From Myxococcota bacterium (lineage in GTDB: Bacteria; Myxococcota; Myxococcia; Myxococcales; Myxococcaceae): a stretch of 39,324 nt of DNA. The stretch lies in the NCBI GenBank assembly GCA_040755835.1, contig JBFMAB010000122.1:107180-146503 (forward strand). The letters run 5' to 3'. Positions 3,150 through 24,860 of the stretch are shown here, piece after piece (the first letter of the stretch is position 1; each line of letters starts with the position of its first letter). The notes below the pieces were generated by a model. That model saw nothing but the letters and a program-made list of their open reading frames with translations. It ran no database searches and was not told the origin of the DNA. Both the position numbers and the translations under genes were made by a program.

Positions 3150-5108
3150 GTGTCGGCGCCAACGCACAGGCCGGTCGTGGTGCTCCCTCCGGGGGGCCCG
3201 CTGCGCGCGCGGATCACCTCGCTGCTGGGCGCGGCGCAGGTGCCGGTGCTGGACGAGGCGCCGCACGACCTCGACGTCGCCATCATCGACCTGCAGGCGC
3301 CGGGGGCCCAGGCCGCCCGGGACGCGCTGCTCGAGGCCGCGCCGCGCGCCGCCATCTTCGGCGTGGCGCCGCCCGACCACCCGATGGACCCGGTGGTGCT
3401 CGAGGTCGTCGCGCCGTCCTCCCTCGACGCGGAGCTCGTGCCGCGCCTCGGCCACCTGCGCGCGCGCCTCGCGACGCTGAAAGAAGCGCAGCAACGCCAG
3501 CGCGACCTGAAGGTGCTGCTCGAGCTGACCGCCGCGTACGCCGAGGCCGCCGACGTCGACGAGCTGTTCCACGACGTCACCCGCCGCCTCGCCGAGGAGG
3601 TGCAGATCGACCGCGTGGCGCTCGTCGTCACCGACGCCGAGCGCGGGGAAGGCACCATCGTCGCGGCGAGCGATGACGCGGCGCTGAAGGATCTCCGCAT
3701 CGACCTCGCCCGCTACCCCGAGGTGCGCGAGGTGCTGCGCACCGGCAAGCCCGTCATCCTCGAGGACGCGCCGACGCATCCGATGCTCGAGGATGTGAAG
3801 GACGCCGTCTCGGCCCAGGGCATTCGCAACATCGCCGCGCTGCCGCTGGCGGTGCGCGGGCAGGTGGAAGGCGTGCTGCTCCTGCGCCGCACCACCGTGG
3901 GCGCCTTCAACCCGCGCGAAGTGGAGTTCCTCACGACCGCGGCGCACGCCACCGCCGTCGCGTTCCGCAACCTGACGCGCCTCGAGCGCGTGCGCGGGCA
4001 GCGCGAGAAGGAGAAGTCGGCCCGCATCGCCGCCGAGGAGCGCGCCGCCACCTTCAAGCGCTACCAGGCGTACTTCGACCACCTGTCCGACGGCGTGGCG
4101 ATTCTCGACAGCCGGGCGTGCGTCGTGTCGCTGAACCCCGCGGGCCTCAAGCTGCTCGACGTCGACGCGAAGCAGGCGGTGGGCCGGCACATCAACGCGC
4201 TCACCAACCCCACCGACGACGCACTGCTCATCGACGTCCTCTACTCGGTGTCGAAGGGGGAGGCGCGCGGCGACGTGGACCTGCACGTGCGCACGCTCGC
4301 GGGCCGGCGGTTGACGCTGTCGGTGTCGGCGGCGCCGATGGCGGGCGACACCGCGGGCGAAGGCGTGGCGGTGCTGACGTTGCGCGACGTGACGCGACAG
4401 CGCGCCATGGCCAAGGAGCTGCGGCAGACGACGGACTTCCTCGAGCGGCTCATCGACTCGTCGGTGGACGCGGTCATCGCCGCCGACCTGCGCGGCAACA
4501 TCATGCTGTTCAACAAGGCCGCCGAAGCCATCTGCGGCTACAGCGCCGCCGAGGTCATCGGGAAGCTGCACGTCACGCAGCTGTACCCGGAGGGCGTCGC
4601 GAAGGAGCTGATGGCGAAGCTCCGCAGCGGCGAGCACGGCGGCAAGGGCCGGCTCACGACCAGCCGCGTCGAGATTCTGAACCGCGCCGGCGAGAGAATC
4701 CCCGTCAACATGACCGCCAGCATCATCTACGAGGGCGCCCGGGAGACGGCGACGGTGGGCATCTTCACCGACCTGCGCGATCGGCTGAACCTCGAGCGGC
4801 GGCTCACCGACGCCGAGGCCCGGCTGCTCGAGAGCGAGAAGAACGCCGTCATCGTCGCGCTCGCCGGCACCGCCGCGCACGAGCTGAACCAGCCGCTCAC
4901 CTCGGTGATGGGCTACGCCGAGCTGCTCAAGCGGAAGATCAAGGACTCCGACCCGTCCTACCGGGCGGTCGACATCATCCACCGTGAGGCCGAGCGCATG
5001 GCGGAGATCGTGAAGAAGATCGGCAAGATCACCCGCTTCGAGACCAAGGCGTACGTGGGCTCGGCGCAGATCGTGGACCTCGACAAGGCGGCGGGTCATG
5101 AAGACTGA
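3150..5108 (+). CDS. Multidomain sensor: degenerate receiver-like N-terminus, GAF, two PAS domains and a HisKA (DHp) domain, with no HATPase_c catalytic domain
   Basis: GAF-like region (LAEEVQIDRVALVVTD...GVLLLRR), PAS regions, and an H-box (AAHELNQPLTSVMGYAELLKRK) followed by only about 60 aa. The N/G1/G2 ATPase boxes are absent. Confidence 0.7.
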   Translation: MSAPTHRPVVVLPPGGPLRARITSLLGAAQVPVLDEAPHDLDVAIIDLQAPGAQAARDALLEAAPRAAIFGVAPPDHPMDPVVLEVVAPSSLDAELVPRLGHLRARLATLKEAQQRQRDLKVLLELTAAYAEAADVDELFHDVTRRLAEEVQIDRVALVVTDAERGEGTIVAASDDAALKDLRIDLARYPEVREVLRTGKPVILEDAPTHPMLEDVKDAVSAQGIRNIAALPLAVRGQVEGVLLLRRTTVGAFNPREVEFLTTAAHATAVAFRNLTRLERVRGQREKEKSARIAAEERAATFKRYQAYFDHLSDGVAILDSRACVVSLNPAGLKLLDVDAKQAVGRHINALTNPTDDALLIDVLYSVSKGEARGDVDLHVRTLAGRRLTLSVSAAPMAGDTAGEGVAVLTLRDVTRQRAMAKELRQTTDFLERLIDSSVDAVIAADLRGNIMLFNKAAEAICGYSAAEVIGKLHVTQLYPEGVAKELMAKLRSGEHGGKGRLTTSRVEILNRAGERIPVNMTASIIYEGARETATVGIFTDLRDRLNLERRLTDAEARLLESEKNAVIVALAGTAAHELNQPLTSVMGYAELLKRKIKDSDPSYRAVDIIHREAERMAEIVKKIGKITRFETKAYVGSAQIVDLDKAAGHED

Positions 5109-7032
5109 CGCGCGCCAGCGCGCCTTCGGCGCATCGAGCCCCGCGGCCGACGCCTTCCAGGCCTTCTTCGACATGGTCGACGCGCCCGCCGCGCTGTGCG
5201 GCGTGGACCTGAAGATCGTCATCGCCAACCCGCCGTTCGAGGTGCTGTGCGGCGCGAAGGACCTCACCGGTCAGCTGGTCACGGATTACCTGTCGAGCGC
5301 CGCGCTGTGCGTGCCCGAGGACGGCCACACCCACGACGTCGAGGTCACCTGCAAGACGGGGCAGGAGGTCACGCTGACCGTCTCGCGCCGCGGCGAGACG
5401 GTGGCGGTGGTGGCGCGGCGCCTGTCGCCGATGCTGGACAGCCTCGCGGCCGCGGGCCGGGCGCTCATCGAGCAGGCGCGCGTCGAGAGCGAGCTCCTCG
5501 ACATCGGCCGGCACGTGGCCGGCGCCACCAGTGAGGAGGAGCTGGTCGCGACGGTGGCGCGCGGCGTGAAGAGCCTGTTTCCGCACCGCGCCTTCTGTGT
5601 GCGCATCGTCGACCCGCGCACCTGCGCGCTCACCTCGCTGTACGCCGAGGGGCGCCTGCGCGACGGCGCGCGCGACGTGTTCCACCTGCGCCGCTCGATG
5701 GTGGAGAAGACGCACCTCGACCCGCGCGGGCTGCCGGCGGAGCGGGTGAAGGTGACGTCGGGCGAGCTGCCGCTGCTCTTCCAGGGCAGCGTGCGCGGCA
5801 TCTCCGCGCCGCTGGTGGCGTCGGGGCAGTTCTTCGGCGCGGTGAACCTGGAGTACCCGCCGGGCCTCTCGGCCGACGTGCTGTCCGACGAGCGCATCGT
5901 CATCCAGCTCGCGAACCAGGTGGCGGTCGCGGTGCGCAACGCGAAGCTCATCGACGAGCTGACGTTCGTGCGGAAGTACCTCGAGGAGCTGCTCGAGAAC
6001 GCGAACGCGCTCATCCTCGTCGCCAACCGCGACGGCCGGGTGGTGGTCTTCAACGGCGCGCTGGTGAGGCTGACCGGCTACGGCAAGGCCGAGGTGTTGG
6101 GCACCGACGTGGCGAAGCTGGTGCCGGAGTCCGAGCGGTTGAAGCTCTTGCGCGTCCTGGACGCGTCGCTCAAGGGCGAGGCGGTGTCGGGCGTGGAGAC
6201 GGCGCTGCTCGGCCGCGACGGCCGGGAGATGCGCGTGGCCTTCGCCACCAGCGCGGTGACGAGCCAGTCCGGCGAGGTGGAAGGCGTCATCGCCATCGGG
6301 CAGGACCTGACGCGCATGCGCGAATTGGAGAAGCGCATCATCCAGGCGGAGAAGCTGGCGTCGCTGGGGCAGCTGGCCGCGAGCGTGGTGCATGAAATCA
6401 ACAACCCGATGACGGCCGTGGCCACGTACGCCGACGCGCTGCTGAAGCGCAGCCTCATGTCGCCGAACGCGGACCCGGCCGACGTCGACAAGTACAAGCG
6501 CATCGTCGACAACTCTGAGCGCGTGCTGCGCTTCACGCGCGACCTCGTCAGCTACGCACGGCCCGCGCAGGACAAGCCGGAAGAGGTCGAGGTCAACCAG
6601 GTGCTCGATCGCGCGGTGGGCTTCTGCGAGCACGTGTTGGTGAAGTACGGCGTCGCGCTCGAGCGCAACTACGGCCAGGTCGGCCCGTTCCTCGCGGTGA
6701 AGCAGAACCTGGTGCAGGTCTTCGTGAACCTCATCACCAACGCGTGTCACGCCACGCATGCCGGCGGGCGCATCACGTTGGCCACCACGAAGGTGGACGA
6801 CCACGTGCTGGTGACGGTGACGGACACCGGCTCGGGCATGGCGCCCGAGGTGCAGGCCCGCATCTTCGAGCCGTTTTTCACCACCAAGCCCGACGGCAAG
6901 GGCACGGGCCTCGGCCTGTCCATCGTGCAGGGCATCATCGAGAGCCACGGCGGCACCATCTCCGTGGAGAGCGCGCCGGGGAAGGGCACCACCTTCACCG
7001 TGAAGCTGCCGATGCTGCGCCGGCTGGGCTGA
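5098..7032 (+). CDS. PAS-GAF-PAS sensor histidine kinase (complete HisKA + HATPase_c)
   Basis: H-box (EKLASLGQLAASVVHEINNPMTAV), N-box (NLITNACHAT), G1/G2 (DTGSGMAPE...GTGLGLSIVQGIIESHGGTISVES). Its ATG overlaps the previous gene's stop (ATGAAGACTGA). Confidence 0.85.
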   Translation: MKTDARQRAFGASSPAADAFQAFFDMVDAPAALCGVDLKIVIANPPFEVLCGAKDLTGQLVTDYLSSAALCVPEDGHTHDVEVTCKTGQEVTLTVSRRGETVAVVARRLSPMLDSLAAAGRALIEQARVESELLDIGRHVAGATSEEELVATVARGVKSLFPHRAFCVRIVDPRTCALTSLYAEGRLRDGARDVFHLRRSMVEKTHLDPRGLPAERVKVTSGELPLLFQGSVRGISAPLVASGQFFGAVNLEYPPGLSADVLSDERIVIQLANQVAVAVRNAKLIDELTFVRKYLEELLENANALILVANRDGRVVVFNGALVRLTGYGKAEVLGTDVAKLVPESERLKLLRVLDASLKGEAVSGVETALLGRDGREMRVAFATSAVTSQSGEVEGVIAIGQDLTRMRELEKRIIQAEKLASLGQLAASVVHEINNPMTAVATYADALLKRSLMSPNADPADVDKYKRIVDNSERVLRFTRDLVSYARPAQDKPEEVEVNQVLDRAVGFCEHVLVKYGVALERNYGQVGPFLAVKQNLVQVFVNLITNACHATHAGGRITLATTKVDDHVLVTVTDTGSGMAPEVQARIFEPFFTTKPDGKGTGLGLSIVQGIIESHGGTISVESAPGKGTTFTVKLPMLRRLG

Positions 7033-7144: not shown

Positions 7145-7960
7145 CTATTCGGCGCCGTCGACTTCCTTCAGGAACTCCTCGCGCGAGATGAGCCCCTTGC
7201 GGGCCATGATGCGCATGAGCGCCCAGAATTTCCGCTCGAGCTTGGCGACCTCGTCCTCGTCGTCCGCGGCGCTGCCGAAGAGGAAGTCGAGGTCCTTCGA
7301 CACGCCGGCGCCGCCCTTCTTCTTCACCTGCGCCTGCGACTGCCGCTCGCTGATGAGCTGCTCGAGCGCCGGGTCGGGCGTGCCGGGGGGCAGCGGGTTC
7401 GACGCGGAGACGATTTCCTCGCCCATCACCGTCGGCGGCTCGTCCTCCGCGGGCTCGAGCCGCACCGAGCCGCTCGCCACGCTCACCGGCGCGCGCGCCC
7501 GCGCCTCGGCGTCGGACACCTTGTGGTAGTAGCGGAGGATCGCCGCGCGAATCTGCGAGTGCGTGGAGACGTAGGCCGCCACCTTGAGGCCGGTGGTGAA
7601 CTCGATCTCCTCCATCGCGCTCTGGTTGAGCGGGTCCGACAGCGCCACCATGAGCCGCTTGTTCGGCGTGCCCTTGCCCTCGATGGCGAAGGGGAACAGC
7701 TCGTGCTGCTCGCAGAAGCGCGCGCGGAGCATGTGCACCGCGGACCAGTCGACCGCCACCTGCGTCAGGTCCACCGTCGCGAGGCCCAGGGACTGCCCCA
7801 GCACCTGCGCGAGCATCACCTCGGTGATGACACCCTGCTGGATGAGCGTGATGCCCAGCCGCTGGCGCGTGCGCTTCTGCGCCAACAGCCCGGCCTCGAG
7901 CTGCGCCTGGGTGATCGCCCGTCGCTCGACCAGGAGCTCGCCAATTCGCTTCCGCGTCAT
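7145..7960 (-). CDS. MshEN / T2SS-E N-terminal domain protein (predicted c-di-GMP receptor domain) with a disordered acidic C-terminal region
   Basis: The N-terminus matches the GspE/MshE N-domain. The 24-residue RLGxxL(I/L)xxG(V/L)(I/L)xxxxLxxxLxxQ c-di-GMP-binding motif appears as RLGITLIQQGVITEVMLAQVLGQS. An ATG at 7960 is preceded by a GGGGG RBS; a GTG at 7978 is the alternative start. Confidence 0.7.
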   Translation of the reverse strand: MTRKRIGELLVERRAITQAQLEAGLLAQKRTRQRLGITLIQQGVITEVMLAQVLGQSLGLATVDLTQVAVDWSAVHMLRARFCEQHELFPFAIEGKGTPNKRLMVALSDPLNQSAMEEIEFTTGLKVAAYVSTHSQIRAAILRYYHKVSDAEARARAPVSVASGSVRLEPAEDEPPTVMGEEIVSASNPLPPGTPDPALEQLISERQSQAQVKKKGGAGVSKDLDFLFGSAADDEDEVAKLERKFWALMRIMARKGLISREEFLKEVDGAE

Positions 7961-8050
7961 CAGACCCCCGACTACCACGCGGCCTCTCGTGTAGGAAAAA
8001 TCAAGGACCTTTCGCCGCTTGTCGTGGTCCGTAATCCGAAGTCGGTTGCC

Positions 8051-8080
8051 TTGACACCCTTTTCACGCGGGGCCTATGGT
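8051..8080 (+). promoter_or_regulatory. Candidate sigma70-type promoter for the tolQ/exbB-like operon
   Basis: TTGACA (8051-8056), an 18-nt spacer, then TATGGT (8075-8080), lying in a lower-GC divergent intergenic region about 70 nt upstream of the 8147 ATG. Confidence 0.3.
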
Positions 8081-8146
8081 GCGCCGGCTTTTCCGGGTTT
8101 TGTGATCCGGGAAGACGGCAAGGGACCCTTTGGAGGTACATCTGAA

Positions 8147-8878
8147 ATGACGCTTGGACTTCTGAGCATTCTGGCGAGTGAGGCGGCCGAAGGTGGCGAG
8201 AGCGGGGGGCTGTTCGCCCGCATCGCCGAGTCGTGGAACGAGGGTGGCTGGGGTATGTACCCCATCGCCTTCTTCTTCGTGATCGGCATCGCCATCACCG
8301 TCGAGCGCATCATCGTGTTGTTCTTCTCGGCGGCCATCAACAAGGACGGCTTCCTCCGTGGCCTGAAGAAGCACATCTACGCGGGCGACCTGGACAAGGC
8401 GATCAACTACGTCGCGGGCCAGAAGCCCACGCCGCTCACCAACGTCATCAAGTCGGGCCTGATGAACGTCCCGAAGGGCGAGGAAGAAGTGCAGGCGGCG
8501 CTCGACGAGGCCAGCCTCCGCGAGAACCCGAAGCTCGAGGCGCGCACCGGTTACCTCGCGATGCTCGGTAACGCCGCGATGCTCGCCGGTCTGCTCGGCA
8601 CGGTCGACGGTCTGATCGGCTCCTTCAAGGCCGTGGCGCACGCGTCGCCTGCCGACCGCGCGACCATCCTCGCCGGCTCCATCGGCGAGGCCATGAACTG
8701 CACCCGCTTCGGCCTCATCGCCGCGATCCCGCTCCTCATCTTCTTCTCGGTCCTCAACGGCCGGACCCAGTCGCTCATCAACGACATCAACGAGACGTCG
8801 GTGTCGGTGCTGAACCTGGTCGTGCAGAACAAGGACAAGTTCAAGAACATGAGCGTCCCGGCCCAGGCCGAGGACTAA
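8147..8878 (+). CDS. MotA/TolQ/ExbB-family proton-channel protein (AglR/TolQ-like)
   Basis: Three transmembrane segments and the conserved C-terminal TolQ/ExbB block (GLLGTV...FGLIAAIPLLIFFSVLNGR). GGAGG RBS at 8132-8136. The internal ATG at 8147 was chosen over the long upstream ORF start. Confidence 0.85.
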   Translation: MTLGLLSILASEAAEGGESGGLFARIAESWNEGGWGMYPIAFFFVIGIAITVERIIVLFFSAAINKDGFLRGLKKHIYAGDLDKAINYVAGQKPTPLTNVIKSGLMNVPKGEEEVQAALDEASLRENPKLEARTGYLAMLGNAAMLAGLLGTVDGLIGSFKAVAHASPADRATILAGSIGEAMNCTRFGLIAAIPLLIFFSVLNGRTQSLINDINETSVSVLNLVVQNKDKFKNMSVPAQAED

Positions 8879-8981
8879 GCCGGTTCGAAGCGAAGGGTCC
8901 CGGTTGGACGGGTGGGGTGGAAACCTCGCCTGTCCAGCCACTGTCAGGTGACGTAAACGGCGCCCGAAGCGGGGAGCCGAG

Positions 8982-8999
8982 GGAGCGGGTGCCCGCTCC
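8982..8999 (+). promoter_or_regulatory. Perfect hairpin (GGAGCGGG/CCCGCTCC) immediately upstream of the first exbD/tolR-like RBS
   Basis: The palindrome ggagcgggtgcccgctcc ends 14 nt before the ATG at 9014 and abuts the GAGGAG RBS. Confidence 0.25.
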
Positions 9000-9013
9000 A
9001 CGAGGAGACGACG

Positions 9014-9499
9014 ATGGCCGGCGGTATGGACTTGGGTGGTGGTGGCGGCAAGGGCAAGAAGCCCCTCGACACGACCATCAACCTGGTGCCCTTCATCGAC
9101 CTCATGGCGGTCACGATCGTCTTCTTGATCATGACGGCCGTGTGGACGCAGCTGGGCCGCCTCCAGGTGTCGCAGTCGGGGCAGAACGCGTCGGAAGAGC
9201 AGCCGCAGGACCCGAACCAGCTTCAGCCGGTGACGCTGCTCATCACCGAGAAGGAGCTCAAGCTGTCGGTCGGCGGCGCGCAGCTCGAGCCGATCCCCAT
9301 TACGCGTGACGACAAGCAGCGCGTGGACGTGGCGCGGCTCATCGACAAGCTCAAGGAGCTGAAGACGCAGCAGCCTGAGCAGAACGCCATCACCGTCTCG
9401 ACCGAAGACAACGTGAGGTACGAAGACCTGGTGCGGGTCATCGACACGTGCATCGGCGGCCAGTTCCCCTCCGTGTCGGTTTCGCCGGCTTCGTCGTAA
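9014..9499 (+). CDS. ExbD/TolR-family protein (AglQ/TolR-like)
   Basis: 161 aa. A single N-terminal TM plus the ExbD signature (INLVPFIDLMAVTIVFLIM) and a periplasmic domain. Confidence 0.8.
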   Translation: MAGGMDLGGGGGKGKKPLDTTINLVPFIDLMAVTIVFLIMTAVWTQLGRLQVSQSGQNASEEQPQDPNQLQPVTLLITEKELKLSVGGAQLEPIPITRDDKQRVDVARLIDKLKELKTQQPEQNAITVSTEDNVRYEDLVRVIDTCIGGQFPSVSVSPASS

Positions 9500-9527
9500 G
9501 CGGCAACGAAAGCGAGTTCACAAGACC

Positions 9528-10112
9528 ATGGCCATCATCACGCCAGGCAAGCGGTTCGGTAAGCGGCTGATGCACTCGAAGATCTTCGGCCACCACGCCA
9601 TGTTGGGGAAGAAGTCCGTCTTCTCCGACCTGAACGTGACGCCGCTGGTCGACATGTTCGTCATCCTCGTGCTCTTCCTCATCGCCAACTTCTCGGCGAC
9701 GGGTGAAATCCTCGCGATGTCGAAGGACATCCAGCTGCCCGAGGCGGCGAACACCGACGAGCTGCAGCTCGCGCCGGTCGTGCAGGTGTCGACGGAGTCG
9801 GTCATCGTGTCCGGCATCATGATTGGCCGGGTCGACGACCTGACCCGCGAGGACTACCTCAACATCCCCGCGCTCGAGGAGAAGCTGCGCGAGATGAAGA
9901 AGGAGTTCGAGGATCTGCACAACGCGGCCAACGACTCCGGCGCCTTCAAGGGCGACGTGAACATCCAGGCGGACAAGCAGGTGCAGTTCCGCATCATCAA
10001 GCGCGTGATGTTCAGCTGCGCCTCGGCCGGCTACGGCAACATCGCCTTCGCGACGATGGCTGCGGGCAGCGAAAACGGTGCGAAGAAGGAAGAGACCGCG
10101 TCCCGCGACTGA
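9528..10112 (+). CDS. ExbD/TolR-family protein, second paralog (AglS/TolR-like)
   Basis: 194 aa. ExbD signature (LNVTPLVDMFVILVLFLIANF). Same strand, 28 nt downstream of the previous gene. Confidence 0.8.
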   Translation: MAIITPGKRFGKRLMHSKIFGHHAMLGKKSVFSDLNVTPLVDMFVILVLFLIANFSATGEILAMSKDIQLPEAANTDELQLAPVVQVSTESVIVSGIMIGRVDDLTREDYLNIPALEEKLREMKKEFEDLHNAANDSGAFKGDVNIQADKQVQFRIIKRVMFSCASAGYGNIAFATMAAGSENGAKKEETASRD

Positions 10113-10138
10113 CTCGCGCTTCGCTGACGCCAGACGAG

Positions 10139-10168
10139 CCCCGGGCGCCCCACGGCCCCGGGGTTTTT
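10139..10168 (+). terminator. Rho-independent terminator candidate after the TolQ-TolR-TolR module
   Basis: GC stem CCCCGGG (10139-45) / CCCGGGG (10157-63) with an 11-nt loop, followed by TTTTT (10164-68). It lies 27 nt after the stop at 10112. Confidence 0.45.
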
Positions 10169-10221
10169 CGTCTTCGCGAAGGGCGCGGTAGAACCCGGCC
10201 ACACCCACATCGGAGCAGCCC

Positions 10222-10545
10222 ATGCTCGCCCTCACCCTGTCCGTGCTGTTGTCCGCAGCGCCCGCGCAGCTCACCATCGAGGTGCAGCCCGAGGGCTGCG
10301 TGGTGAAGGTGGACGGGAAGAAGGCCGGCACCGGGGCGAAGCCCTTCACGGTGAAACTCAAGCCCGGGAAGCACACCATTCGCGTCGAATACAGGGGTGA
10401 CGCCACCACCGAGGAGCTGGCGCTGAAGGCGGGCGAGAAGAAGACGTGGAAGTGGGAGTTCACCGGCGTTTCGCCGGAGCCCCAGAAGGAGGAGGCCGAG
10501 AAGGCCGAGGCCGGCCCGGCCGGCGAGGTGGCCCCGTCGCCTTGA
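10222..10545 (+). CDS. Small secreted PEGA-domain-like protein
   Basis: Signal peptide, then a PEGA-like beta motif (IEVQPEGCVVKVDGKKAGTGAKPFTVKLKPGKHTIRVE) and a Lys/Glu-rich tail. Confidence 0.5.
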   Translation: MLALTLSVLLSAAPAQLTIEVQPEGCVVKVDGKKAGTGAKPFTVKLKPGKHTIRVEYRGDATTEELALKAGEKKTWKWEFTGVSPEPQKEEAEKAEAGPAGEVAPSP

Positions 10546-10605
10546 GGGCTCGTCGAGTCGCTCGACCCTCGGGGCTGCGCTAACCTTCACGTCCGGTGCA
10601 CCGCG

Positions 10606-11313
10606 ATGCCGAATGACCCGGACGATCCGAAGAACTCGTCAGCCGTGGCCGACCTCTTCCCGTTCGACGAGCTGTCGACGGGTGAGACGTCGTCGCTGCT
10701 CAAGCGCGCGAAGCTGGTGACGGGCTTCCAGGACGACCCGACGCCCGAAGTCGACCCGACGCTCAAGCCCACCACCGGCCGCTTCCTCGCGCTCAAGGCC
10801 GCCGCCGACTCGTCGCGGCCGGCCACCGGCGCGCACGCGGCGCTCAAGCCGTCGGCGCCCCTGCCGCCGCGGCCGGGAGGCACCGGCTCGATGCCCGCCT
10901 TCAAGCCGGGCACGACGTCCAGCCAGCCGGCCTTCAACCCGTCGGCGCCGAGGCCGGGCCAGCCCGCGTACCACCCGTCAGCGCCGAGGCCCGGCACGTC
11001 GAGCCAGCCCGCGTACCACCCGTCAGCGCCGCGCGCGGGCACCTCGAGCCAGCCGGCCTTCAACCCGTCGGCCCCGCGGCCACGCCCCAGTACCGGCGCG
11101 CACGCGGCGCTCGACCCGGACGCGCTGCAGCGGGAGATCCGCGCGCGTGCCCGCCACGACGCCGCCGTCGCGCCGCCTCCCGGCGCGAAGCCCGGCCGCC
11201 CGGTGAAGCCGCCGCTGGCCGCCGAGGACACCTTCGTGAAGAAGAAAATCCGCCAGGCGGAGAACAACCTGCCCGACTGGGACTTCGACACCGACGACGA
11301 GGACGCCGGCTGA
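10606..11313 (+). CDS. Pro/Ser-rich low-complexity protein with tandem 14-15-aa repeats (SSQPA[F/Y][N/H]PSAPRPG) and an acidic C-terminus
   Basis: ORF with consistent codon bias, four tandem imperfect repeats, and a C-terminal DWDFDTDDEDAG. No TM segment or signal peptide. Confidence 0.5.
   Translation: MPNDPDDPKNSSAVADLFPFDELSTGETSSLLKRAKLVTGFQDDPTPEVDPTLKPTTGRFLALKAAADSSRPATGAHAALKPSAPLPPRPGGTGSMPAFKPGTTSSQPAFNPSAPRPGQPAYHPSAPRPGTSSQPAYHPSAPRAGTSSQPAFNPSAPRPRPSTGAHAALDPDALQREIRARARHDAAVAPPPGAKPGRPVKPPLAAEDTFVKKKIRQAENNLPDWDFDTDDEDAG
10891..11092 (+). repeat. Tandem 42-45-bp coding repeat, about 4 copies
   Basis: The unit agccagccSgcSttcaacccgtcRgcgccgMgSccSggcacStcg repeats with few substitutions inside the Pro-rich gene. 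Confidence 0.6.
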
Positions 11314-11330
11314 AACGCGCGCCGCCCGCC

Positions 11331-11993
11331 GTGACGAGCCTCTCCCCAGGACCGGGCCAGCCACTCAAGCCAGGCGAGCTGCGCGAGGTGCTGGGCGCCT
11401 TCGTCCTCGCCGAGGCCCGCGAGCCGGGCGAGGTGGCCGTCACCCTGGGCCCGAGGGAGCGCGCGCTGCTCGCGGACATGCCCTGGCCGGTGCGGCGCGC
11501 CGAGTGGCTCGCCGGGCGACGCGTCGCCAAGCGCCTGCTGGAGCGCGCCTTCCAGCTGGCGCCCGGGCGCGTCGAGGTGCTGCCGCTCGAGTCCGGCGCG
11601 CCGCGCGTCTTCGTCGACGGCGAGGCGCGGGCCGACCTGGTGCTGAACCTCTCGCACACCCGCGGCTGGGCCGTGGCCGCCGCGTCCACCGCCGCCGTGG
11701 GCATCGACGCCTGCGACGACGCCGACGGGCCGCGCCTCGAGCGCATCGGCCGGCGCGTCTTCTCCGAAGGCGAGGCCGAGGGCTGCGGCGCGCACGCGAG
11801 CGCCCGCACCCAGGCCGCCGTCTGGGCGCTCAAGGAGGCGGGCCTCAAGCTGCGCATCGGCGGCATCTTCGACCCCGGCGCCCGCAGCATCCGCGTGGTG
11901 TCGCTGGAGCCGGCCCGCATCGCCGACCCGTCGGTGCAGGTGGCGCTCTTGCGCCTGCCCAGCGCCGCCGTCGCCGTCGCCCGCGAGGCCTGA
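11331..11993 (+). CDS. Sfp-type 4'-phosphopantetheinyl transferase
   Basis: PPTase motifs GIDACD (the Mg-binding GxD) and WALKEAGLK (W/FxxKEAxxK). 220 aa. Confidence 0.75.
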   Translation: MTSLSPGPGQPLKPGELREVLGAFVLAEAREPGEVAVTLGPRERALLADMPWPVRRAEWLAGRRVAKRLLERAFQLAPGRVEVLPLESGAPRVFVDGEARADLVLNLSHTRGWAVAAASTAAVGIDACDDADGPRLERIGRRVFSEGEAEGCGAHASARTQAAVWALKEAGLKLRIGGIFDPGARSIRVVSLEPARIADPSVQVALLRLPSAAVAVAREA

Positions 11994-12270
11994 GGCGCCC
12001 GGCCACCTTCGTGGCGCTCGACAGCATCCAGAAGGCCTTCCCCGGCGAGGGCAAGCCCTTCACCTGCGACAACCGGCGCAGGCCACCGGCGCGTACCAGC
12101 GCGCGCCGGTGACGCCGTCGCGCTTCGACCGCGTGGCGCGAAGCTGACGCGAAGGCGCGCACCGACGGCGAGAAGAAGGGCCTCGAAACCTTCGTCGCCG
12201 CGGGCTGCACGGCGCGCCACCTGCCGACGCCCACGCCCGCGCCCGACGCTGGGCCCGGGGAAGCCGGCGC
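11994..12270 (+). pseudogene. Decayed fragment of a di-haem cytochrome c peroxidase (CCP/MauG family) gene
   Basis: Across two frames it reads ...YQRAPVTPSRFDRVA | ADAKARTDGEKKGLETFVAAGCTARH. These match the CCP blocks FExTLxTPxSPFDRYL and TxxEKRGLxLFxxxGCxxCH. The haem CxxCH motif is mutated to CTARH (TGC to CGC). There is a frameshift and stop near 12135-12150. The N-terminal two thirds and the distal part are missing. Confidence 0.35.
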
Positions 12271-12410
12271 CCGGCCTCGAGGGACGACGGGCGCGCGGAC
12301 CGGGACGACGCCGAAGCCGGACCCGACGTCAGGCGGCGCCCGGGAACGCGAGCGCCTCACCGGGCCTGCGCCTGGGGAGGCTTCTTCGTTTCACAGCGCG
12401 AGCAGGCGCT

Positions 12411-13634
12411 TCAGCGCACGAGCTCGCGCGCCTGCGCCACCTTCTCCCCGTTGGGGAAGCGCTTCAGGTAGTCGGCGGCGACCTTCTTCGCCTCGGCCTT
12501 CCGCTTGCTGCGCACCAGCACGTCCAGCCAGCGGCCCATGGCCTCGGGCGCGGTGTCGGCGTTGGGCGCCTCCTTCACGGCCTGGGAGAACCACCTCACC
12601 GCCTGCTGGTCGTCGTGCTCGACGTTGGCCGCGAGGTCGCCCAGGCGAATGGCGGCGGCCACGGCGGCGTCGCTGCCGGGGAAGCGCTCGCGCACCTGCA
12701 GCCACGCCTCGCGGGCGTACGCGGGGTGGCGCGCCTTCTTCGCGGTGTCGCCGAGCAGCAGCACGTCGCTCTTCGGGAGCGAGCGGGTGAGCCAGCTGAA
12801 GCCGGCCTCGTCCGCGGCTTGGATGGCGCCGACCGCGTCGCCGGTGTCGGCGAGGTAACGCCACGACGGGCCCTGGGCCTTCGGCCGCTCCGGCGCGGCC
12901 TGCGGCGTGCGCTTCTCGGACAGCACGCGCACCACCGGCGGCGACGTCTGCGGCGCGCGCTCGGCCTCGGCCACCGCGGGCGGCGTCTCGAGGTACAGCG
13001 AGGCGCGCGGCGGGTTGGAGAAGGCCTCCAGCTTCTGCCGCGAGGTGACGCGCTGCTTCGACAGCCCCGGGCCGTCGACCTCGACGATGCCCTCCTCCAT
13101 CTCCACCTCGATGCCGCCCGCCTCCGGGTTCCACCGCAGCTCGAACTTCGTGCCCACCACGGCGACGCGGTACGGGCCGGCGTGGAAGTTCCAGCGCGTC
13201 TGCTTGTCGCGGTGCACCACCGCCACGTGCGCGGCGCCCTTCTCGAGCAGCACATCGGCGCCGTGGGCCGTCACCTTCGTCACGCGGATCTGCGAGTCCT
13301 TGCGGAGCAGCACCTCGGTGCCGTCGCTGAAGTCGATGGCTTCGTCGCCGGCCTGCGCGAGGACAAACTCGCCAGACGAGCCGGGCTGGCCGCGCACGGT
13401 GAGGCTGAGCGGCGTCTCGGGCCACACCACGAAGGCCACCACCGCCGCGGCGGCGGCCGCCGACAGCACGGGCACCACGAAGCGCCACATCGACGGCGCC
13501 GGCGTGTCGACGCCGTGCAGCTTCTCGGCGAAGCGCGCGCGCGCCCTCGCCAGCACGGCCTGGTCACTCGCCGGACCGGCGTTCTGCCCCTGCCGCTCCA
13601 GCGCCTCGGTGTACTTGTCGCTGAAATCCTTCAT
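12411..13634 (-). CDS. FecR-domain anti-sigma factor with a C-terminal TPR-like region
   Basis: Start MKDFSDKYTEAL overlaps the sigma stop (TCATGA at 13631-13636). One TM (FVVPVLSAAAAAAVVAFVVW). FecR-like beta region (VGTKFELRWNPEAGGIEVEMEEGIVEV). Helical C-terminus. The longer upstream ORF start was rejected. Confidence 0.7.
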   Translation of the reverse strand: MKDFSDKYTEALERQGQNAGPASDQAVLARARARFAEKLHGVDTPAPSMWRFVVPVLSAAAAAAVVAFVVWPETPLSLTVRGQPGSSGEFVLAQAGDEAIDFSDGTEVLLRKDSQIRVTKVTAHGADVLLEKGAAHVAVVHRDKQTRWNFHAGPYRVAVVGTKFELRWNPEAGGIEVEMEEGIVEVDGPGLSKQRVTSRQKLEAFSNPPRASLYLETPPAVAEAERAPQTSPPVVRVLSEKRTPQAAPERPKAQGPSWRYLADTGDAVGAIQAADEAGFSWLTRSLPKSDVLLLGDTAKKARHPAYAREAWLQVRERFPGSDAAVAAAIRLGDLAANVEHDDQQAVRWFSQAVKEAPNADTAPEAMGRWLDVLVRSKRKAEAKKVAADYLKRFPNGEKVAQARELVR

Positions 13635-14317
13635 GACCCGAAGGACCTCCCTTCCGCGAGCCAGGCGCGAATCTCCGGTTCCCGCTGCACCAGCTCGTTG
13701 AACTCGGCTTCCGCCTTCCAGATGCGGCGCTTCGCCGTCGACAGCGACACGCCTACCGTCTCGGCCACCTCGGTCAGCTCCAGGCCTTCGAAGTAGCGGA
13801 GCGTGAAGCACAGTCTCTCGTCGACGCCCAGGCGGTCCAGCACCGCCTTCACGCGCCTCAGCACGAGGCGTTCCTGCACCGCGTCGGACGTGGTGAGCGC
13901 CGGCAGGCCGCTCGTTTCGAGCGCCTCGTCGTTGCCCTCGTCGCCGCCGCCCAGCGGCAGCCACTTCCGCCAGCGGCGCTTCTTGAGCATCGAGCGCGCG
14001 GTGAAGACGGTGAGGCTGCGCAGCCAGGGCTTCAGCTTGTCGGCCTCGCGCACGCGGCCCACGCCCTCGAGCGCGCGGGAGAAGACTTCCTGCACCATGT
14101 CTTCGAGCTCGCCGTCCGCGCCCATCACCCGGCGCAGCACCGACAGCACGTAGGGCGCGAAGCGATCGTAGAAGGCGAGCCACGCCCCGGGCCGGCGCGC
14201 GCGCAAGGCCTCGAGCAGCCGCTCGTCGCTCCCCGCAAAGGCCACCGACGGCGTCGGTCTGGTCATCGCAGCATCCACGCAGGCCCCCAGTCTCCCGGGG
14301 AATCTCCCGCGGTTCAT
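13631..14317 (-). CDS. ECF (sigma-70 family, group IV) RNA polymerase sigma factor
   Basis: Region 2 (DMVQEVFSRAL...) and a region-4 helix-turn-helix (FEGLELTEVAETVGVSLSTAKRRIWKAE). The alternative start is MTRPT at 14266. Confidence 0.8.
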   Translation of the reverse strand: MNRGRFPGRLGACVDAAMTRPTPSVAFAGSDERLLEALRARRPGAWLAFYDRFAPYVLSVLRRVMGADGELEDMVQEVFSRALEGVGRVREADKLKPWLRSLTVFTARSMLKKRRWRKWLPLGGGDEGNDEALETSGLPALTTSDAVQERLVLRRVKAVLDRLGVDERLCFTLRYFEGLELTEVAETVGVSLSTAKRRIWKAEAEFNELVQREPEIRAWLAEGRSFGS

Positions 14318-14428
14318 CCCGTGAAAAATCAGGCAGTTATCAAGCGTGACCGGCTGATTTCGTGGATCAGCGGGCCCGCCCCTGGGGTGTGTCCGGCCGC
14401 GCAGGTGTCCTGAGGGGGTCGCCGCGGT

Positions 14429-15763
14429 TCATCCGAGGCGGAAGCGGCGGATGACGGCCTGGAGCTCTTCGGACAGGGTGGTGAGTTCCTGGGCGGACGC
14501 GGTCATCTGGCCGACGGCCTGGGATTGCTCCTCGATGACGCGCTTGATGGCCTCGGTGGCCAGGGCGTTCTCGCGGGCGACGCCGGAGATGTCGGTGATG
14601 GCCTGCACCATGGCCTGGCTGGATTGCTGCTGGGCCTGCGCGGCGGTGGAGATGTGGGCCACCTTGTCGGCGCCGTCCCTGGCGGAGTCGGAGATGGCGG
14701 CCATCGAGCGCACGATGAGCGAGAGGTCCTCGCGGCCCTGCGCGAGCTCTTCGATGCCCTCCTTCATCGCGGTGACGACGTGCACCGACTGGCCGGAGAT
14801 GTCGCGGGCGAGGCGGCTGATGGCCTCGGCGGACTTGCCGGCGGACTCGGCCAGCTTGCGCACCTCGTCGGCGACGACGGCGAAGCCGCGGCCGTACTCA
14901 CCGGCGCGCGCGGCCTCGATGGTGGCGTTGAGCGCGAGGAGGTTCGTCTGCTGCGCGACCTGGGTGATGGCGTCGACGATCTTGGAGATCTCCTGCGTCT
15001 TCTCGCCGAACTTGAAGACCTCCTGGCTGGCGGTCTCGATGCGGCTGAACACCTTGCGCACCTTCTCGCCGGCGAGTCGCGCGGCGGTGCTGCCTTCTTC
15101 AGCGGACTGCGAGGTGGCGGCAGCGGCCTTGGTCGACTCCTCGGCGGAGCGGGCGGTGCGCTGCAGCACCTCGGCCATCTCGGTGATGGTGCCCTTCGCG
15201 CGCGCCACCAGCGAGGACTGCGCCTCGGCGCCCGCGGCGATGCGCTTCATCGACTCGCCGATCTCGGAGGCCTGCGCGTTGACGCCGGTGGCCGATGCCT
15301 CGAGGCCGGTGGCCGCGTCGGCGACGGCTTCCGCGGTGTGTTGGATGGAGGACACCAGCTCGCGCAGGTTCTCCTGCATGTCGTCGATGGCGACGGCGAG
15401 CTCGTCGATGTCGTCGCGCACGCTGGACGCGTCGAGCTGCACGCGCCGCGAGAGGTCGCCGCGCGAAATCTCAAGCGCCGTCTGCGACAGCTGCTGCACG
15501 CGCGCGACGCGCAACAGCAGCCACGGCAGGGTCACCGCGAGGATGAGCGTCACCAGGAAGGCCGCGATGATTTTCAGCGCCCAGTCCCACGCGTTGCCCA
15601 CGTAGAAGACGCCCACCAGGGCGGTGGCCAGTACCACGTAGCCGGCGAGGATCTTCAAATGCAGCGACACCTGCGCCCGCCGCACGTCCCCCTGCCGCAC
15701 GACGCGCTCCACCGGCTGCCGCCTCGACAGCCCACCAGCCGCCACGTCGGAGGGTCTGCGCAC
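14429..15763 (-). CDS. Methyl-accepting chemotaxis protein (two TMs, HAMP, MCP signalling domain)
   Basis: Two N-terminal TM helices, HAMP, and the highly conserved MCP signalling core ([34 protein letters not shown]). Confidence 0.85.
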
Positions 15764-15975
15764 GAGGGGGAGATTTAGCCCCAGACGCCCCCGCCCTCCA
15801 GTTTGCTCCGGCTGTTGCCAGGCCGGGCTTCAGGAGCGCAAGGCGCCGCGCGCGCGGGCGAAGCTGCACGTCGCGTCCGAGGCAGCCTGAGTCCACAGGC
15901 CTGTCGCACCTGCACCCACCGCCCGAGAAGAACGCGACGCGCCGGGGCGGGCGTGTAGACTCGCAGCGGTTTCGC

Positions 15976-18009
15976 GTGGCCACGCCCAGCTTCATCGCCC
16001 CGACCAGTCCGCTCGATCGGCGGCGGCTCGGGAAGTATGAGGTGCTGTGCCGTCTGTCGACGGGCGGCATGAGCGAGATCTACCTCGCGCACCAGACGGG
16101 CCTGGCGGGCTTCAACAAGTTGGTGGTGCTGAAGACCATTCTCCCCGACATCGGCGGGGAAGAAGACTTCGTGCGCATGTTCCTCGACGAGGCCCGCACG
16201 ACGGCGGCCTTCAACCACCCGAACATCGCGCAGGTGTACGAGCTGGACACGGACGACGGCCAGCTCTTCATGGCGATGGAGTTCGTCCAGGGTTGCACGC
16301 TGGTGGAGATGGCGCGGGCCTGCCGCGCGGCGCGCGAGGCGATCCCCATCGGCTTCACGCTGGCGGCGGTGCGTGACACCGCGCTGGCGCTCCACTACGC
16401 GCACACCTTCACCGACGCGCGCGGCCGCAAGCAGATCGTCATCCACCGCGACGTCGCCGAGAAGAACATCATGGTGACGTACGAGGGCGTCACCAAGCTG
16501 CTGGACTTCGGCATCGCCAAGGCGCTGGGGCGCTCGGGCCGCACCGGCGTGGGCATGGTGAAGGGGACGAGCGGCTACATGTCCCCCGAGCAGATCCGCG
16601 GCGAGCCGCTCGACGGGCGCAGCGACATCTTCGCGTTGGGGGTGGTGGCCCACGAGTGCCTCACCGGCCTGCGGCTCTTCCACGGCAAGTCGCCCGAGGA
16701 AGGGATGATGGCGGCGCTCAAGGAGAACGTCGTCCCGCCGTCGAGGTGGAACCCGCAGGTGCCGCCGGCGGTGGACGCGGTCGTGCTCAAGGCGCTGCAG
16801 CGCGATCGCGAAGCGCGCTTCGCCACGGCCCTGGAGTTCGCGCGCGAAATCGACCGCGTCGGCCACGGGCTCATCTGGCACCCGGAGCAGAGCGGCGAGC
16901 TGGTGCTGAAGTACTTCAACGACCGCCGTGCCGAGACGCGCCGGTTGCTCGAGTCGTCCGTCAACCAGGAGGTGACCGGCGAGATCCGGGTGAAGTCCAT
17001 CATCCAGAAGGTGCGCGCCACCGCGTCGACGCCGGGCACGGACGCTCCGAAACCCGAGCAGGCCACGCCCGCGCCCACCCCCGTCATCAGCGCGGCGCTG
17101 CGGCGCCCGACGCAGAACATGCCGCCGGCGACGCAGGGCACGGCGCCGAACATCAACCCTGTCACGCTGCGGCAGCCCGACCCGACCACCTCGCCGGCGC
17201 GCCCGAAGGTGCTGCGCGCCGACCCGCCGCCGGCCCCCGCGCCGCGCGCCATCGACCTGACGCCGCGGGCGAGCGAGTTCGACGACGACGAGGCCGACGC
17301 GAAGACGATTCCCGCGGCGGCGCTGCCCGACGAGGTCCGCGAGCTCCGCAAGCGCATGCTGGAGGCCGCTCAGGCGAAGAAGGCCTCGCCCACCGGCACC
17401 ACCACGCCCGTCGCTGCGTCGGTGCGAACGAGCCGTCCGGACACCAGCTCCATCACCGAGCCCACGCCCGTGCAGCCGCCGGCGCCGGTGGTGGCCTCCG
17501 CCGCCCGCGCCAACCTCGCCACGGAGCCGGAGCGCCGGCCGGTGCTGCCGGTGACGGACGCGAGCCCGGCGCTCAAGGTGCCACCGCGCGACACCGACGG
17601 CGACACGCTCAGCATCACCAACCGCGGGTCGCCGCCCACCGACTGGGACGACGACGACGTGGGCGCGCGCACCACCATCGCCCGCCCCGACGAGGTGCTG
17701 GGGCAGATCAAGAAGCAGCAGTCCGACGACGACCTCCGCGCGACGCAGGAGCGCGAGCCCTCGTCGGTGTACCTGCGCGAGGTGCGCTGGCGGAGCCGCG
17801 CGTTGATGGTGGTGCTGGTGGCGATGGCGCTGCTCGCCGTCGTGGGCATCCTGGTGCTGCTGGAGGTCATCCCCCTGGGCGCCGCCGACGAGCCGCAGGC
17901 GGAAGCAATACCCGCCGTCGTCCAACCCACGGCAGACACCGCGGCCGAGGCGCCGCCCGAGCCGCTGCCCGACGTCCCCGCGCCCACACCCGCGCCGAAC
18001 AAGAGGTAG
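15976..18009 (+). CDS. Hanks-type Ser/Thr protein kinase with a Pro-rich linker and a C-terminal TM segment
   Basis: Kinase subdomains: VLK (Lys), HRD catalytic loop (HRDVAEKN), DFG, SPE. Long Pro/Ala-rich region. TM (ALMVVLVAMALLAVVGILVLL). Confidence 0.85.
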   Translation: MATPSFIAPTSPLDRRRLGKYEVLCRLSTGGMSEIYLAHQTGLAGFNKLVVLKTILPDIGGEEDFVRMFLDEARTTAAFNHPNIAQVYELDTDDGQLFMAMEFVQGCTLVEMARACRAAREAIPIGFTLAAVRDTALALHYAHTFTDARGRKQIVIHRDVAEKNIMVTYEGVTKLLDFGIAKALGRSGRTGVGMVKGTSGYMSPEQIRGEPLDGRSDIFALGVVAHECLTGLRLFHGKSPEEGMMAALKENVVPPSRWNPQVPPAVDAVVLKALQRDREARFATALEFAREIDRVGHGLIWHPEQSGELVLKYFNDRRAETRRLLESSVNQEVTGEIRVKSIIQKVRATASTPGTDAPKPEQATPAPTPVISAALRRPTQNMPPATQGTAPNINPVTLRQPDPTTSPARPKVLRADPPPAPAPRAIDLTPRASEFDDDEADAKTIPAAALPDEVRELRKRMLEAAQAKKASPTGTTTPVAASVRTSRPDTSSITEPTPVQPPAPVVASAARANLATEPERRPVLPVTDASPALKVPPRDTDGDTLSITNRGSPPTDWDDDDVGARTTIARPDEVLGQIKKQQSDDDLRATQEREPSSVYLREVRWRSRALMVVLVAMALLAVVGILVLLEVIPLGAADEPQAEAIPAVVQPTADTAAEAPPEPLPDVPAPTPAPNKR

Positions 18010-18337
18010 CGCGAAAGTCCTCCCCGCGCCTGAAGCCCCGAGCCACGCGTTGCTCGCGCCCGGGGGTCCGCGGCCGAGCGACGAGCGCTGCGGGCCGCCG
18101 GGGAGCGGCGCCACCACCTCGCCCATGCCCCCGACGTGCAGTGGCTGACGGCCGGCGTGCGGCGGTGAGGGCGGGTACGGACCACACGTGCGCGCCGGGG
18201 CTCGAACCTCTCCGGGCAGAGCGCCAGGGGCGGCACCGGCACCGCGGTGCCCGGGCCGACGGACGGCGCCCGGGCGCTTCGCGTCCTTCGGGGCGGAGAG
18301 GAGCGACCGCACGGGCGCCGCGCGGCACGACGCGCCC

Positions 18338-18899: not shown

Positions 18900-18976
18900 T
18901 GACGCGCGCCACCGCGTCGGTCTTCCTCCGCCTGGCCGTCGTCCTGCCCGAAGGTGTGCAAGGTTTACCCCGGTCC

Positions 18977-20196: not shown

Positions 20197-20203
20197 TCCG
20201 CCG

Positions 20204-20692: not shown

Positions 20693-20728
20693 GCGTTCGC
20701 GGACGGCGAGGCTAGCAGCACCGCCAAT

Positions 20729-22720: not shown

Positions 22721-22900
22721 GCGCGGCCTTGTGTCGGAGTGACCCGCCCGGCGCCAGCCAGCGCGCGCAGAACCGTCGGAGGCGTCGGGAATCGCGCGGG
22801 CGTGGGCGCGTGGGCTTGCGTGCGCGCGGTGACTCGGGCCAGATGCGCGTCCGTCCGCGGGCGGCCGGCGCCTGCGCGTCTTGTTTCCCGGGGAGTCGCC

Positions 22901-24795: not shown

Positions 24796-24860
24796 GGGTC
24801 TGGCCTCCGGTCGCGGGGCGGATTACCACCATTCCCTCGGCATGCGAAACGAGGGCTGTC

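Follow-up and report, generated by a model that had tools for sequence, protein, structure and literature searches.

The window analysed in this study is a stretch of 39,324 nucleotides from the genome of an uncultured Myxococcota bacterium (contig JBFMAB010000122.1), with a G+C content of ~70%. To judge from its sequence, the locus of interest is an aglRQS operon, the genes of a gliding motor, transcribed divergently from an orthologue of Myxococcus xanthus MXAN_6863, which encodes a stand-alone MshEN protein and predicted receptor of cyclic di-GMP (c-di-GMP) (Table 1). The region holds six real genes, and all the genes that an earlier note on this DNA had described were recovered in place; the intergenic region, given there as 187 bp, measured 186 bp (7961-8146). 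Four of the genes were identified as the aglR, aglQ, aglS and MXAN_6863 orthologues, the ligand-contacting residues of the MshEN protein are conserved in its family, and the gene pair is strictly maintained among relatives. What is new here is the linkage of an MXAN_6863-type MshEN gene to aglRQS, which has apparently not been discussed in the literature searched.

Table 1. Coordinates of the features of the aglRQS/MshEN locus and of the neighbouring kinase pair (positions in the window).
Feature	Position	Strand	Description and evidence
Stand-alone MshEN protein	7145..7960	-	271 amino acids; orthologue of M. xanthus MXAN_6863 (ABF89935) and predicted c-di-GMP receptor; PF05157, NF053729, AlphaFold2 (AF2)/Foldseek
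53-residue c-di-GMP-binding module (predicted)	7790..7948	-	residues 5-57: half-site I 5-28, spacer KRTRQ 29-33, half-site II 34-57
MshEN_C subdomain	7520..7789	-	residues 58-147; Pfam MshEN match, pLDDT >90
Acidic, Pro-containing linker	7262..7492	-	residues 157-233; GEEI (~180-183) and KDLDFLFG (222-229) conserved
Conserved C-terminal two-helix module	7148..7261	-	residues 234-271, LERKFWALMRIMARKGLISREEFLKEV; alignments and AF2
Candidate extended -10 of the MshEN gene	7969..7977	-	TGGTAGTCG; 9-17 nt before the ATG
aglR promoter	8051..8080	+	TTGACA-18-TATGGT; consensus scan, 1 site vs 0.2 expected
aglR	8147..8878	+	MotA/TolQ/ExbB-type channel subunit, 243 amino acids; PF01618 4.9e-24
aglQ	9014..9499	+	ExbD/TolR-type plug/stator subunit, 161 amino acids, transmembrane Asp D29; PF02472 2.1e-19
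aglS	9528..10112	+	second ExbD/TolR-type subunit, 194 amino acids; PF02472 1.6e-18
Intrinsic terminator closing the aglRQS operon	10132..10174	+	consensus scan and RNA fold
Paired sensor kinase, conserved neighbours	3150..7032	+	HK1 3150-5108, HK2 5098-7032; Pfam domains

In M. xanthus, AglR (MXAN_6862), AglQ (MXAN_6861) and AglS (MXAN_6860) comprise 245, 162 and 194 amino acids (Luciano et al., 2011). The three open reading frames (ORFs) divergent from the MshEN gene in the Myxococcus loci of our sample have exactly these lengths, with D28 in the middle ORF, and the window AglR, AglQ and AglS are 72%, ~60% and ~65% identical to them (overall range 58-74%). D29 of the window AglQ sits in the motif PFIDLM and is equivalent to D28 of the Myxococcus orthologues; the published aglQ D28N mutation abolished proton conductance and paralysed the motility machinery. 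Synteny, lengths and identity all point to MXAN_6862-6860 as the counterparts, not to the paralogous set MXAN_3003-3005 or to the Tol-Pal genes MXAN_5753/5754. Because sizes, motor Asp and synteny with the MXAN_6863 orthologue agree, the TolQ-TolR-TolR set is identified as the aglRQS orthologue and not as a Tol-Pal or TonB energiser, in line with the earlier note, which had proposed an Agl-type gliding motor. The equivalog models of the other systems were not reached: the window AglR scored 62 bits against the cut-off of 221 for TolQ (TIGR02796) and 54 against 206 for ExbB (TIGR02797), and the two ExbD-type proteins scored 35-37 against 127 for TolR (TIGR02801) and 24-26 against 153 for ExbD (TIGR02803). 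One promoter and one terminator serve all three genes. The clean terminator that had been noticed after the second ExbD gene was confirmed as a hairpin (stem ~10132-10163, followed by UUUUUCGUCUU) of -46.1 kcal/mol (z -3.8), and 0 of 200 shuffled sequences folded as stably. A third ExbD-type gene, AglQ-like (40-58% identity), was also detected downstream of aglS in four related loci (L002 7327-7815, L023 7459-7902, L047 2528-2890 and L053 3275-3631).

The Agl motor is needed for gliding and for sporulation and spore-coat assembly in M. xanthus. By orthology, the window AglR would be a MotA/TolQ/ExbB-type proton channel, modelled as a pentamer, in which an AglQ-AglS heterodimer would form the ExbD/TolR-type core. 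Using the proton-motive force, the motor would set in motion the gliding complex Glt and the spore-coat complex Nfs, and force would be passed on through the TolA/TonB-like proteins GltG/NfsG, encoded elsewhere. Such a proton-driven AglR5QS motor driving Glt and Nfs is established for M. xanthus and is transferred to the window by orthology. M. xanthus AglR contacts GltG and NfsG; GltG and GltJ have domains resembling the TonB C-terminus, and their genes belong to the G1 cluster, apart from aglRQS, and current models describe an AglR5-AglQ-AglS-GltG assembly analogous to TolQ5R2-TolA. No glt or nfs genes were found within the 39-kb window, and none of its ORFs that were scanned or read showed a domain of TolA, TolB, Pal, TonB_C or a TonB-dependent receptor. 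The absence of a TolA or TonB partner, which the earlier note had stressed, is thus true of the locus but not of the system, since GltG, NfsG and GltJ are encoded elsewhere in M. xanthus.

The product of the divergent gene matched Pfam MshEN (PF05157) over residues 58-147 (E 6.8e-17, 61.7 bits against a cut-off of 23.1) and NCBIfam NF053729 'c-di-GMP_motif' over residues 5-56 (58.2 bits against 38). The T2SSE_N match and the binding motif expected from the letters alone are both present, and the description of the gene as a GspE/MshE N-domain with a near-perfect 24-residue motif and no ATPase is borne out. An ATPase domain is absent from the 271 residues (68.5 and 16 bits for the PilB and GspE models, which require 675 and 630), and pil, msh and gsp genes are missing from its neighbourhood in the window. 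The AF2 model has a pLDDT (predicted local distance difference test) value above 90 over residues 11-150, and its best Foldseek match in the PDB is Vibrio cholerae MshE (VcMshE) with bound c-di-GMP (5htl_B; E 7.6e-10, TM 0.88, root-mean-square deviation 1.9 Å, 34% identity).

The tandem 24-residue motif was defined by Wang et al. (2016). Half-site II of the window protein, RLGITLIQQGVITEVMLAQVLGQS (residues 34-57), fits it at all constrained positions except the last (Q to S). Half-site I, RIGELLVERRAITQAQLEAGLLAQ (residues 5-28), which had been overlooked in the earlier note, deviates at L2 (to I) and at the turn G10 (to R; R14). The two are separated by exactly five residues, as in VcMshE. 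Against the relaxed pattern of Wang et al., half-site II passes and half-site I fails solely at the turn Gly. Conservation of the ligand site was computed in 115 members of the MshEN family, 78 of which pass the pattern for site I and 111 for site II. In these members, conservation is 100% for R1, G3, L17, L21 and Q24 of site I and 97-100% for R1, L2, G3, L17 and L21 of site II; the contact residues are also conserved across paralogues. The deviations are recurrent: L2 of site I is I, the turn G of site I is R/K/N in 30%, and Q24 of site II is S in 98%. Wang et al. reported that changes of charged or polar residues shifted the affinity by no more than about fivefold, while mutation of any conserved hydrophobic residue lowered it more than tenfold. 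Together with the deviations seen in the window, these affinities make c-di-GMP binding likely, not certain, and we consider it probable that the protein binds one c-di-GMP through the tandem half-sites, as predicted.

MXAN_6863 was placed at 8415686-8416576 on the plus strand, among 17 MshEN genes, by Kuzmich et al. (2022), who also gave primers for quantitative PCR. These primers fall inside the orthologous gene of three loci, L004, L005 and L029 (forward exact, reverse with 1-2 mismatches), and the N-terminus of MXAN_6863 printed by Wang et al. (2016) is identical to that of L004 and L029. As primer sites, N-terminal sequence and position beside aglR all match, the window protein, which is 50-53% identical to the Myxococcus orthologues (296 amino acids), is taken on these grounds as the MXAN_6863 orthologue. 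The gene as such had thus been recorded before: it is in the list of 17 of Kuzmich et al. and in a table of Wang et al. (in their Supplementary Table 3, MXAN_6863 stands with PilB in the first column, and FrgA and PulE in the second). Our literature search found MXAN_6863/MXAN_RS33245 in supplementary lists only, and no link between an MshEN protein and gliding. One of the three primer-matched records, L005 (BNCN01000005.1; two mismatches in the reverse primer), is titled 'Comamonas sp. KCTC 72670' and holds a Myxococcus-type aglRQS/MXAN_6863 locus; the record is probably mislabelled or contaminated.

Behind the MshEN fold the protein ends in an acidic linker with an isoelectric point of 4.4, largely of low confidence in the model (pLDDT <50 for residues 162-192). 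Two C-terminal helices follow (residues 234-254 and 260-269; pLDDT ~62-82), the first of them amphipathic (hydrophobic moment 0.68). The long disordered acidic tail of the earlier note thus holds for residues 157-233, which are acidic and of low confidence, but not for the end of the tail, which is a conserved helical module. The wider family examined comprises 149 cluster representatives (50% identity) retrieved with the window MshEN protein. L241, E242, F245, W246, L248, R250, K255, G256, E262 and F263 are conserved across it, and the module (~35 residues, LE[RK]KFWALMR..A[RK]KG[LIV].[TS]..EF, undescribed) is present in 72 of the 149 representatives, so that it marks a large family of small MshEN proteins. 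The linker motif DL.[FY]L.G occurs also in sister clades away from aglR. Matches of the module to RHH_4 and SHOCT were sub-threshold only, and its profile gave no match in the PDB at E <= 10. Aligned by hhalign to the MshEN_N hairpin as a possible third degenerate copy, the C-terminal hairpin fell into the expected register, but with a probability of 4.7%, and the idea was dropped. The module is probably a docking or oligomerisation element. Two observations on related proteins are added here. In L055, the last 50 codons of the MshEN gene are repeated (7996-8142; 48% protein identity) ~1.3 kb downstream of the full gene, which resembles a partial duplication. In L118 (2380-2865) and L119 (228-713), a paralogous MshEN protein is encoded divergently from a YajQ-family gene; the YajQ family reportedly binds c-di-GMP in Xanthomonas.

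When one genome per species was searched with the window MshEN protein, 31 loci were obtained, 30 of them with upstream sequence, from Myxococcus, Corallococcus, Pyxidicoccus, Hyalangium, Archangium, Cystobacter and related metagenome-assembled genomes. The MshEN gene is divergent from aglR-aglQ-aglS in 30/30 of these. The same pair was found in 24 metagenome loci, and the seven members without a match have at most 444 nt of upstream sequence. The intergenic region of the pair varies from 95 to 368 bp. Some distant members also lie beside a MotA_ExbB gene followed by ExbD genes (P0260, P0267 and P0252, 46-47% identity; P0273, 36%, whose short contigs take in the 5' end of aglR only), and eight distant representatives lie in unrelated contexts (P0261, P0269, P0263, P0271, P0275, P0277, P0283 and L062). 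In a rough neighbour-joining tree, the aglR-adjacent MshEN proteins all fall into one clade; therefore the pairing is stably kept by one orthogroup and does not characterise the family as a whole. The flanks change much more. Downstream of aglS there is a HAD hydrolase gene in 21 loci, PEGA and Pro-rich genes in the window only, and in L125 VTT/LON genes. The MshEN gene and the kinase pair are separated by insertions of 0-6.6 kb (0.8-6.6 kb in many lineages) or, in L113/L114, by a radical-SAM gene. The pairing of the MshEN gene with aglRQS is thus real and much tighter than the surrounding synteny, and the arrangement seen in the window is conserved in its relatives. The best 120 protein-search matches of AglR were all at least 74% identical, and distant aglRQS-bearing taxa were not reached this way.

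The two genes share one short control region, of which 39 were aligned (14 loci displayed). The aglR promoter block CCTTGACAC is conserved in 36/39 regions, and in the window a Shine-Dalgarno sequence, GGAGG, stands before aglR at 8132-8136. A TG.TA block before the MshEN start is conserved in most of the 14 displayed loci. The strongest mapped transcription start of M. xanthus MXAN_6863 is at its start codon (offset 0); by analogy, the position of the candidate -10 in the window fits a leaderless or near-leaderless MshEN mRNA. No operator common to all 39 intergenic regions was found, and most share the aglR promoter, the Shine-Dalgarno sequence and the TG.TA block only. A 22-bp element, TGAAATCTCACAGGAATTTTGC, is identical in 15 Myxococcus/Corallococcus/Pyxidicoccus-related loci and near-identical in nine more (24 in total). 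It sits upstream of the aglR -35, at a distance of ~24 bp, and 120-153 bp ahead of the MshEN ATG (L004-L030 and L039-L052), and is absent from window 7961-8146 and from the window's clade. A chromatin immunoprecipitation summit of MrpC has been mapped in M. xanthus at -170 from MXAN_6863.

Compared with M. xanthus AglRQS (MXAN_6862-6860), the window locus has the same gene order R-Q-S, similar sizes, the AglQ motor Asp and the divergent MshEN neighbour, and Tol-Pal/TonB genes are absent in cis in both. It differs in the length of the intergenic region (186 vs ~325 bp), in the missing 22-bp element and in the genes after aglS. The window aglRQS is known from the sequence of an uncultured lineage, whereas M. 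xanthus AglRQS is known from function. The MshEN protein shares with the uncharacterised MXAN_6863 the MshEN fold, the acidic linker with GEEI and DLD[FY]LFG, the C-terminal LERKFWALMRIMARKGL module and the place beside aglR, and is shorter (271 vs 296 amino acids). The turn of half-site I is R in both proteins, and the last residue of half-site II is S in the window and A in Myxococcus. With MshE/PilB/PilF-type ATPases (VcMshE, 5htl) the protein has in common the MshEN fold with its four-helix N subdomain and alpha/beta C subdomain, the tandem 24-residue half-sites and the five-residue spacer; however, it ends in a flexible tail and a helical hairpin, not in an ATPase. The motor genes belong to the same superfamilies as TolQ-TolR-TolA and ExbB-ExbD-TonB. 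Agl is predicted to be a 5:2 assembly (AglR5 with an AglQ-AglS plug) with GltG in the TolA role, but its core is a heterodimer of two ExbD paralogues and not a homodimer, its partners GltG/GltJ/NfsG are encoded elsewhere, and its output is surface transport, not envelope integrity or uptake.

Gene neighbourhood and precedent suggest what the pair may do. The MshEN protein would be a c-di-GMP-dependent adaptor whose tail docks on the cytoplasmic face of AglR5QS or on its cytoplasmic platform, and which, once docked, would tune motor engagement or partner choice, as PilZ proteins such as YcgR do on flagellar MotA stators. The target of YcgR is MotA, and c-di-GMP-bound YcgR interferes with flagellar rotation. 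YcgR is a functional analogue only: in both cases a small cytoplasmic c-di-GMP receptor is proposed for a proton-driven motor of the MotA/TolQ/ExbB family, but there the receptor is PilZ and the motor flagellar, while here they are MshEN and the Tol-like Agl, and the interaction is purely hypothetical. Gliding has been reported to be regulated by c-di-GMP in Bdellovibrio, where cyclic GMP-AMP (cGAMP) is required for Agl-type gliding, in a paper that names no receptor. For the MshEN protein of the window we infer ligand binding, physical target and physiological output alike. Such an adaptor mechanism on AglR5QS is the most likely one, yet tentative. A more specific form of it, in which the protein would be a clutch or partner-switch dedicated to the motor and governed by a cyclic dinucleotide (c-di-GMP or perhaps cGAMP), and by which for example the motor would be uncoupled from Glt or redirected to Nfs as c-di-GMP rises in development, is doubtful. 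Taken as a whole, an AglRQS motor with an adjacent c-di-GMP receptor acting as motor adaptor is the best explanation of the locus, held with a little under even confidence.

Several points weigh against this explanation. Gliding of M. xanthus was unaffected when c-di-GMP was raised or lowered by heterologous enzymes, and equally when each of 24 GGDEF/EAL/HD-GYP genes was inactivated singly. The published transposon hits in the M1 cluster are only in aglR and aglS, a 2025 structural model of the Agl-Glt machine with 17 proteins makes no mention of c-di-GMP, and our literature search found no paper naming MXAN_6863 in its main text. Half-site I of the window lacks the turn Gly (R14), and half-site II has S for the Gln that contacts ribose and phosphate. 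The C-terminal module and DL.[FY]L.G are common to paralogues beside unrelated genes, and the only positions specific to the aglR-adjacent clade are R79, E120 and G180, so that an AglR-specific interface is not visible. The sensor-kinase pair is a second conserved neighbour and possibly the real partner. Finally, the conservation sample consists of one myxobacterial group and its metagenome relatives, and excludes the aglRQS loci of Anaeromyxobacter, Polyangia and Bdellovibrio. A 2026 transposon-sequencing preprint counts MXAN_6860-6862 alone as the M1 locus. The input from a second messenger to the motor that the earlier note had put forward stays a reading of the gene neighbourhood, beside an M. 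xanthus gliding apparatus insensitive to c-di-GMP levels. In M. xanthus, c-di-GMP is reported to be essential for development; sporulation, too, requires the Agl motor, and gliding assays would miss an effect limited to development.

The kinase pair offers a different partner. HK1 (GAF-PAS-PAS-HisKA, without an ATPase domain) and HK2 (PAS-HisKA-HATPase_c) overlap by 11 nt. In the window, as in most loci, the pair converges on the MshEN gene, sometimes 13-55 bp away from it or overlapping it. The same GAF-PAS-HisKA type of kinase is convergent to paralogous MshEN genes without aglR (L112, 39-62% identity to HK2/HK1, and L118). The MshEN protein might thus be an adaptor for HK1/HK2, or a generic c-di-GMP adaptor, with the aglRQS adjacency as inherited synteny, and both the insensitivity of gliding to c-di-GMP levels and the output module common to many paralogues would suit this. 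We consider it rather unlikely, as many Myxococcus, Pyxidicoccus and Corallococcus loci carry insertions of 0.8-6.6 kb that interrupt the kinase link and a radical-SAM gene takes the place of the kinase in L113/L114, while the aglR link is never broken within the clade; moreover, the convergent orientation of the kinase pair gives no common regulation, whereas the promoters of aglR and of the MshEN gene lie in a single short region.

Two further readings have lower probabilities. A c-di-GMP-responsive local transcription factor, acting through a C-terminal ribbon-helix-helix (RHH)-like domain on the shared aglR/MshEN control region, would have a parallel in CdbA, the RHH c-di-GMP receptor that M. 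xanthus already has. Of seven more distant relatives or paralogues that have upstream flank, five carry the gene divergent from its upstream neighbour, as is usual for local regulators, and 20/23 C-terminal segments match RHH_4 (PF13467), all sub-threshold (best E 0.0024, 18.3 bits against 25). However, these matches below the cut-off omit the ribbon (profile positions 16-47 only), and the would-be strand EVEKLERKFW has hydrophobic residues at i, i+3, i+7 and i+8, a helical pattern, in keeping with the single helix 234-254 of the AF2 model. The segment is preceded by the acidic run DDEDE, its profile finds nothing in the PDB, no operator-like repeat runs across all intergenic regions, and the window's clade lacks the strongly conserved 22-bp element. 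A regulator of this kind is quite improbable. The same Pfam families cover ExbB/TolQ and ExbD/TolR, and the ECF sigma/FecR pair at 12411-14317 belongs to a type often linked to TonB-dependent transducers. On this basis the three membrane proteins could be an ExbB-ExbD-ExbD set for TonB-dependent uptake, or TolQR of a Tol-Pal system, with partners just outside. This has next to no probability and is effectively refuted: all four equivalog cut-offs are far from reached, size, motor Asp and synteny with MXAN_6863 give aglRQS orthology, the complete Tol-Pal cluster of M. xanthus is separate (MXAN_5753-5757), no TonB_C, TolA, TolB, Pal or receptor domain is in the window, and the ECF/FecR genes sit in a lineage-specific insertion. 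The TonB-dependent uptake clade that the earlier note had named as the contrary case is thereby set aside.

The reading of an AglRQS motor with an adjacent c-di-GMP receptor as its adaptor matters because the Agl motor powers both myxobacterial gliding and spore-coat assembly, and the switching between these jobs and the cytoplasmic regulation of the motor are only partly understood. Most of the ~17-22 MshEN proteins of M. xanthus have no known role. A predicted c-di-GMP receptor fixed beside aglR amid changing flanks is a candidate link between the motor and c-di-GMP fields. If true, the clutch or partner-switch would make this the first case of a second-messenger receptor at work on an envelope motor of the Tol/Exb type, and a clutch working in development would explain why c-di-GMP had no effect in colony-level gliding assays of growing cells. 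The lead may also be relevant to how cyclic dinucleotides control gliding of the Agl type in Bdellovibrio. Should the link prove false, what is left is an ordinary aglRQS orthologue with a catalogued neighbour.

Downstream of aglS, the PEGA match was confirmed (9.9e-07). The Pro-rich gene (10606-11313, plus strand) contains a 45-nt repeat in 2.8 copies (10958-11081), and its product is cytoplasmic and apparently disordered, with 15-residue repeats (SQPA[FY][NH]PSAPRPG..) and an acidic C-terminus. It has no family match and no homologue in any related locus, and a TonB-like role was rejected, as it has neither a transmembrane helix nor a TonB_C domain. The PEGA, Pro-rich and PPTase genes were likewise rejected as parts of the system, since tblastn found them in 0/110 related loci, including the locus with 87% MshEN identity. 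The earlier note was thus right that PEGA and Pro-rich tandem-repeat genes follow the motor, but they are lineage-specific and lie outside the system. In L125/L126, the VTT_dom and LON_substr_bdg genes (window 24097-25520) directly follow aglS, and by this comparison window ~10200-24050 is lineage-specific. This insertion carries the PEGA gene, the Pro-rich repeat protein, the PPTase, FecR/ECF sigma, a methyl-accepting chemotaxis protein, a Ser/Thr kinase, a pseudouridine synthase and DoxX, together with an FHA protein, an ORF resembling amidohydrolases and a secreted protein rich in Cys. The gene for a secreted Gly/Cys-rich repeat protein with C..G.C-type repeats lies on the plus strand at ~22900-24058, within a region whose GC skew is strongly positive.

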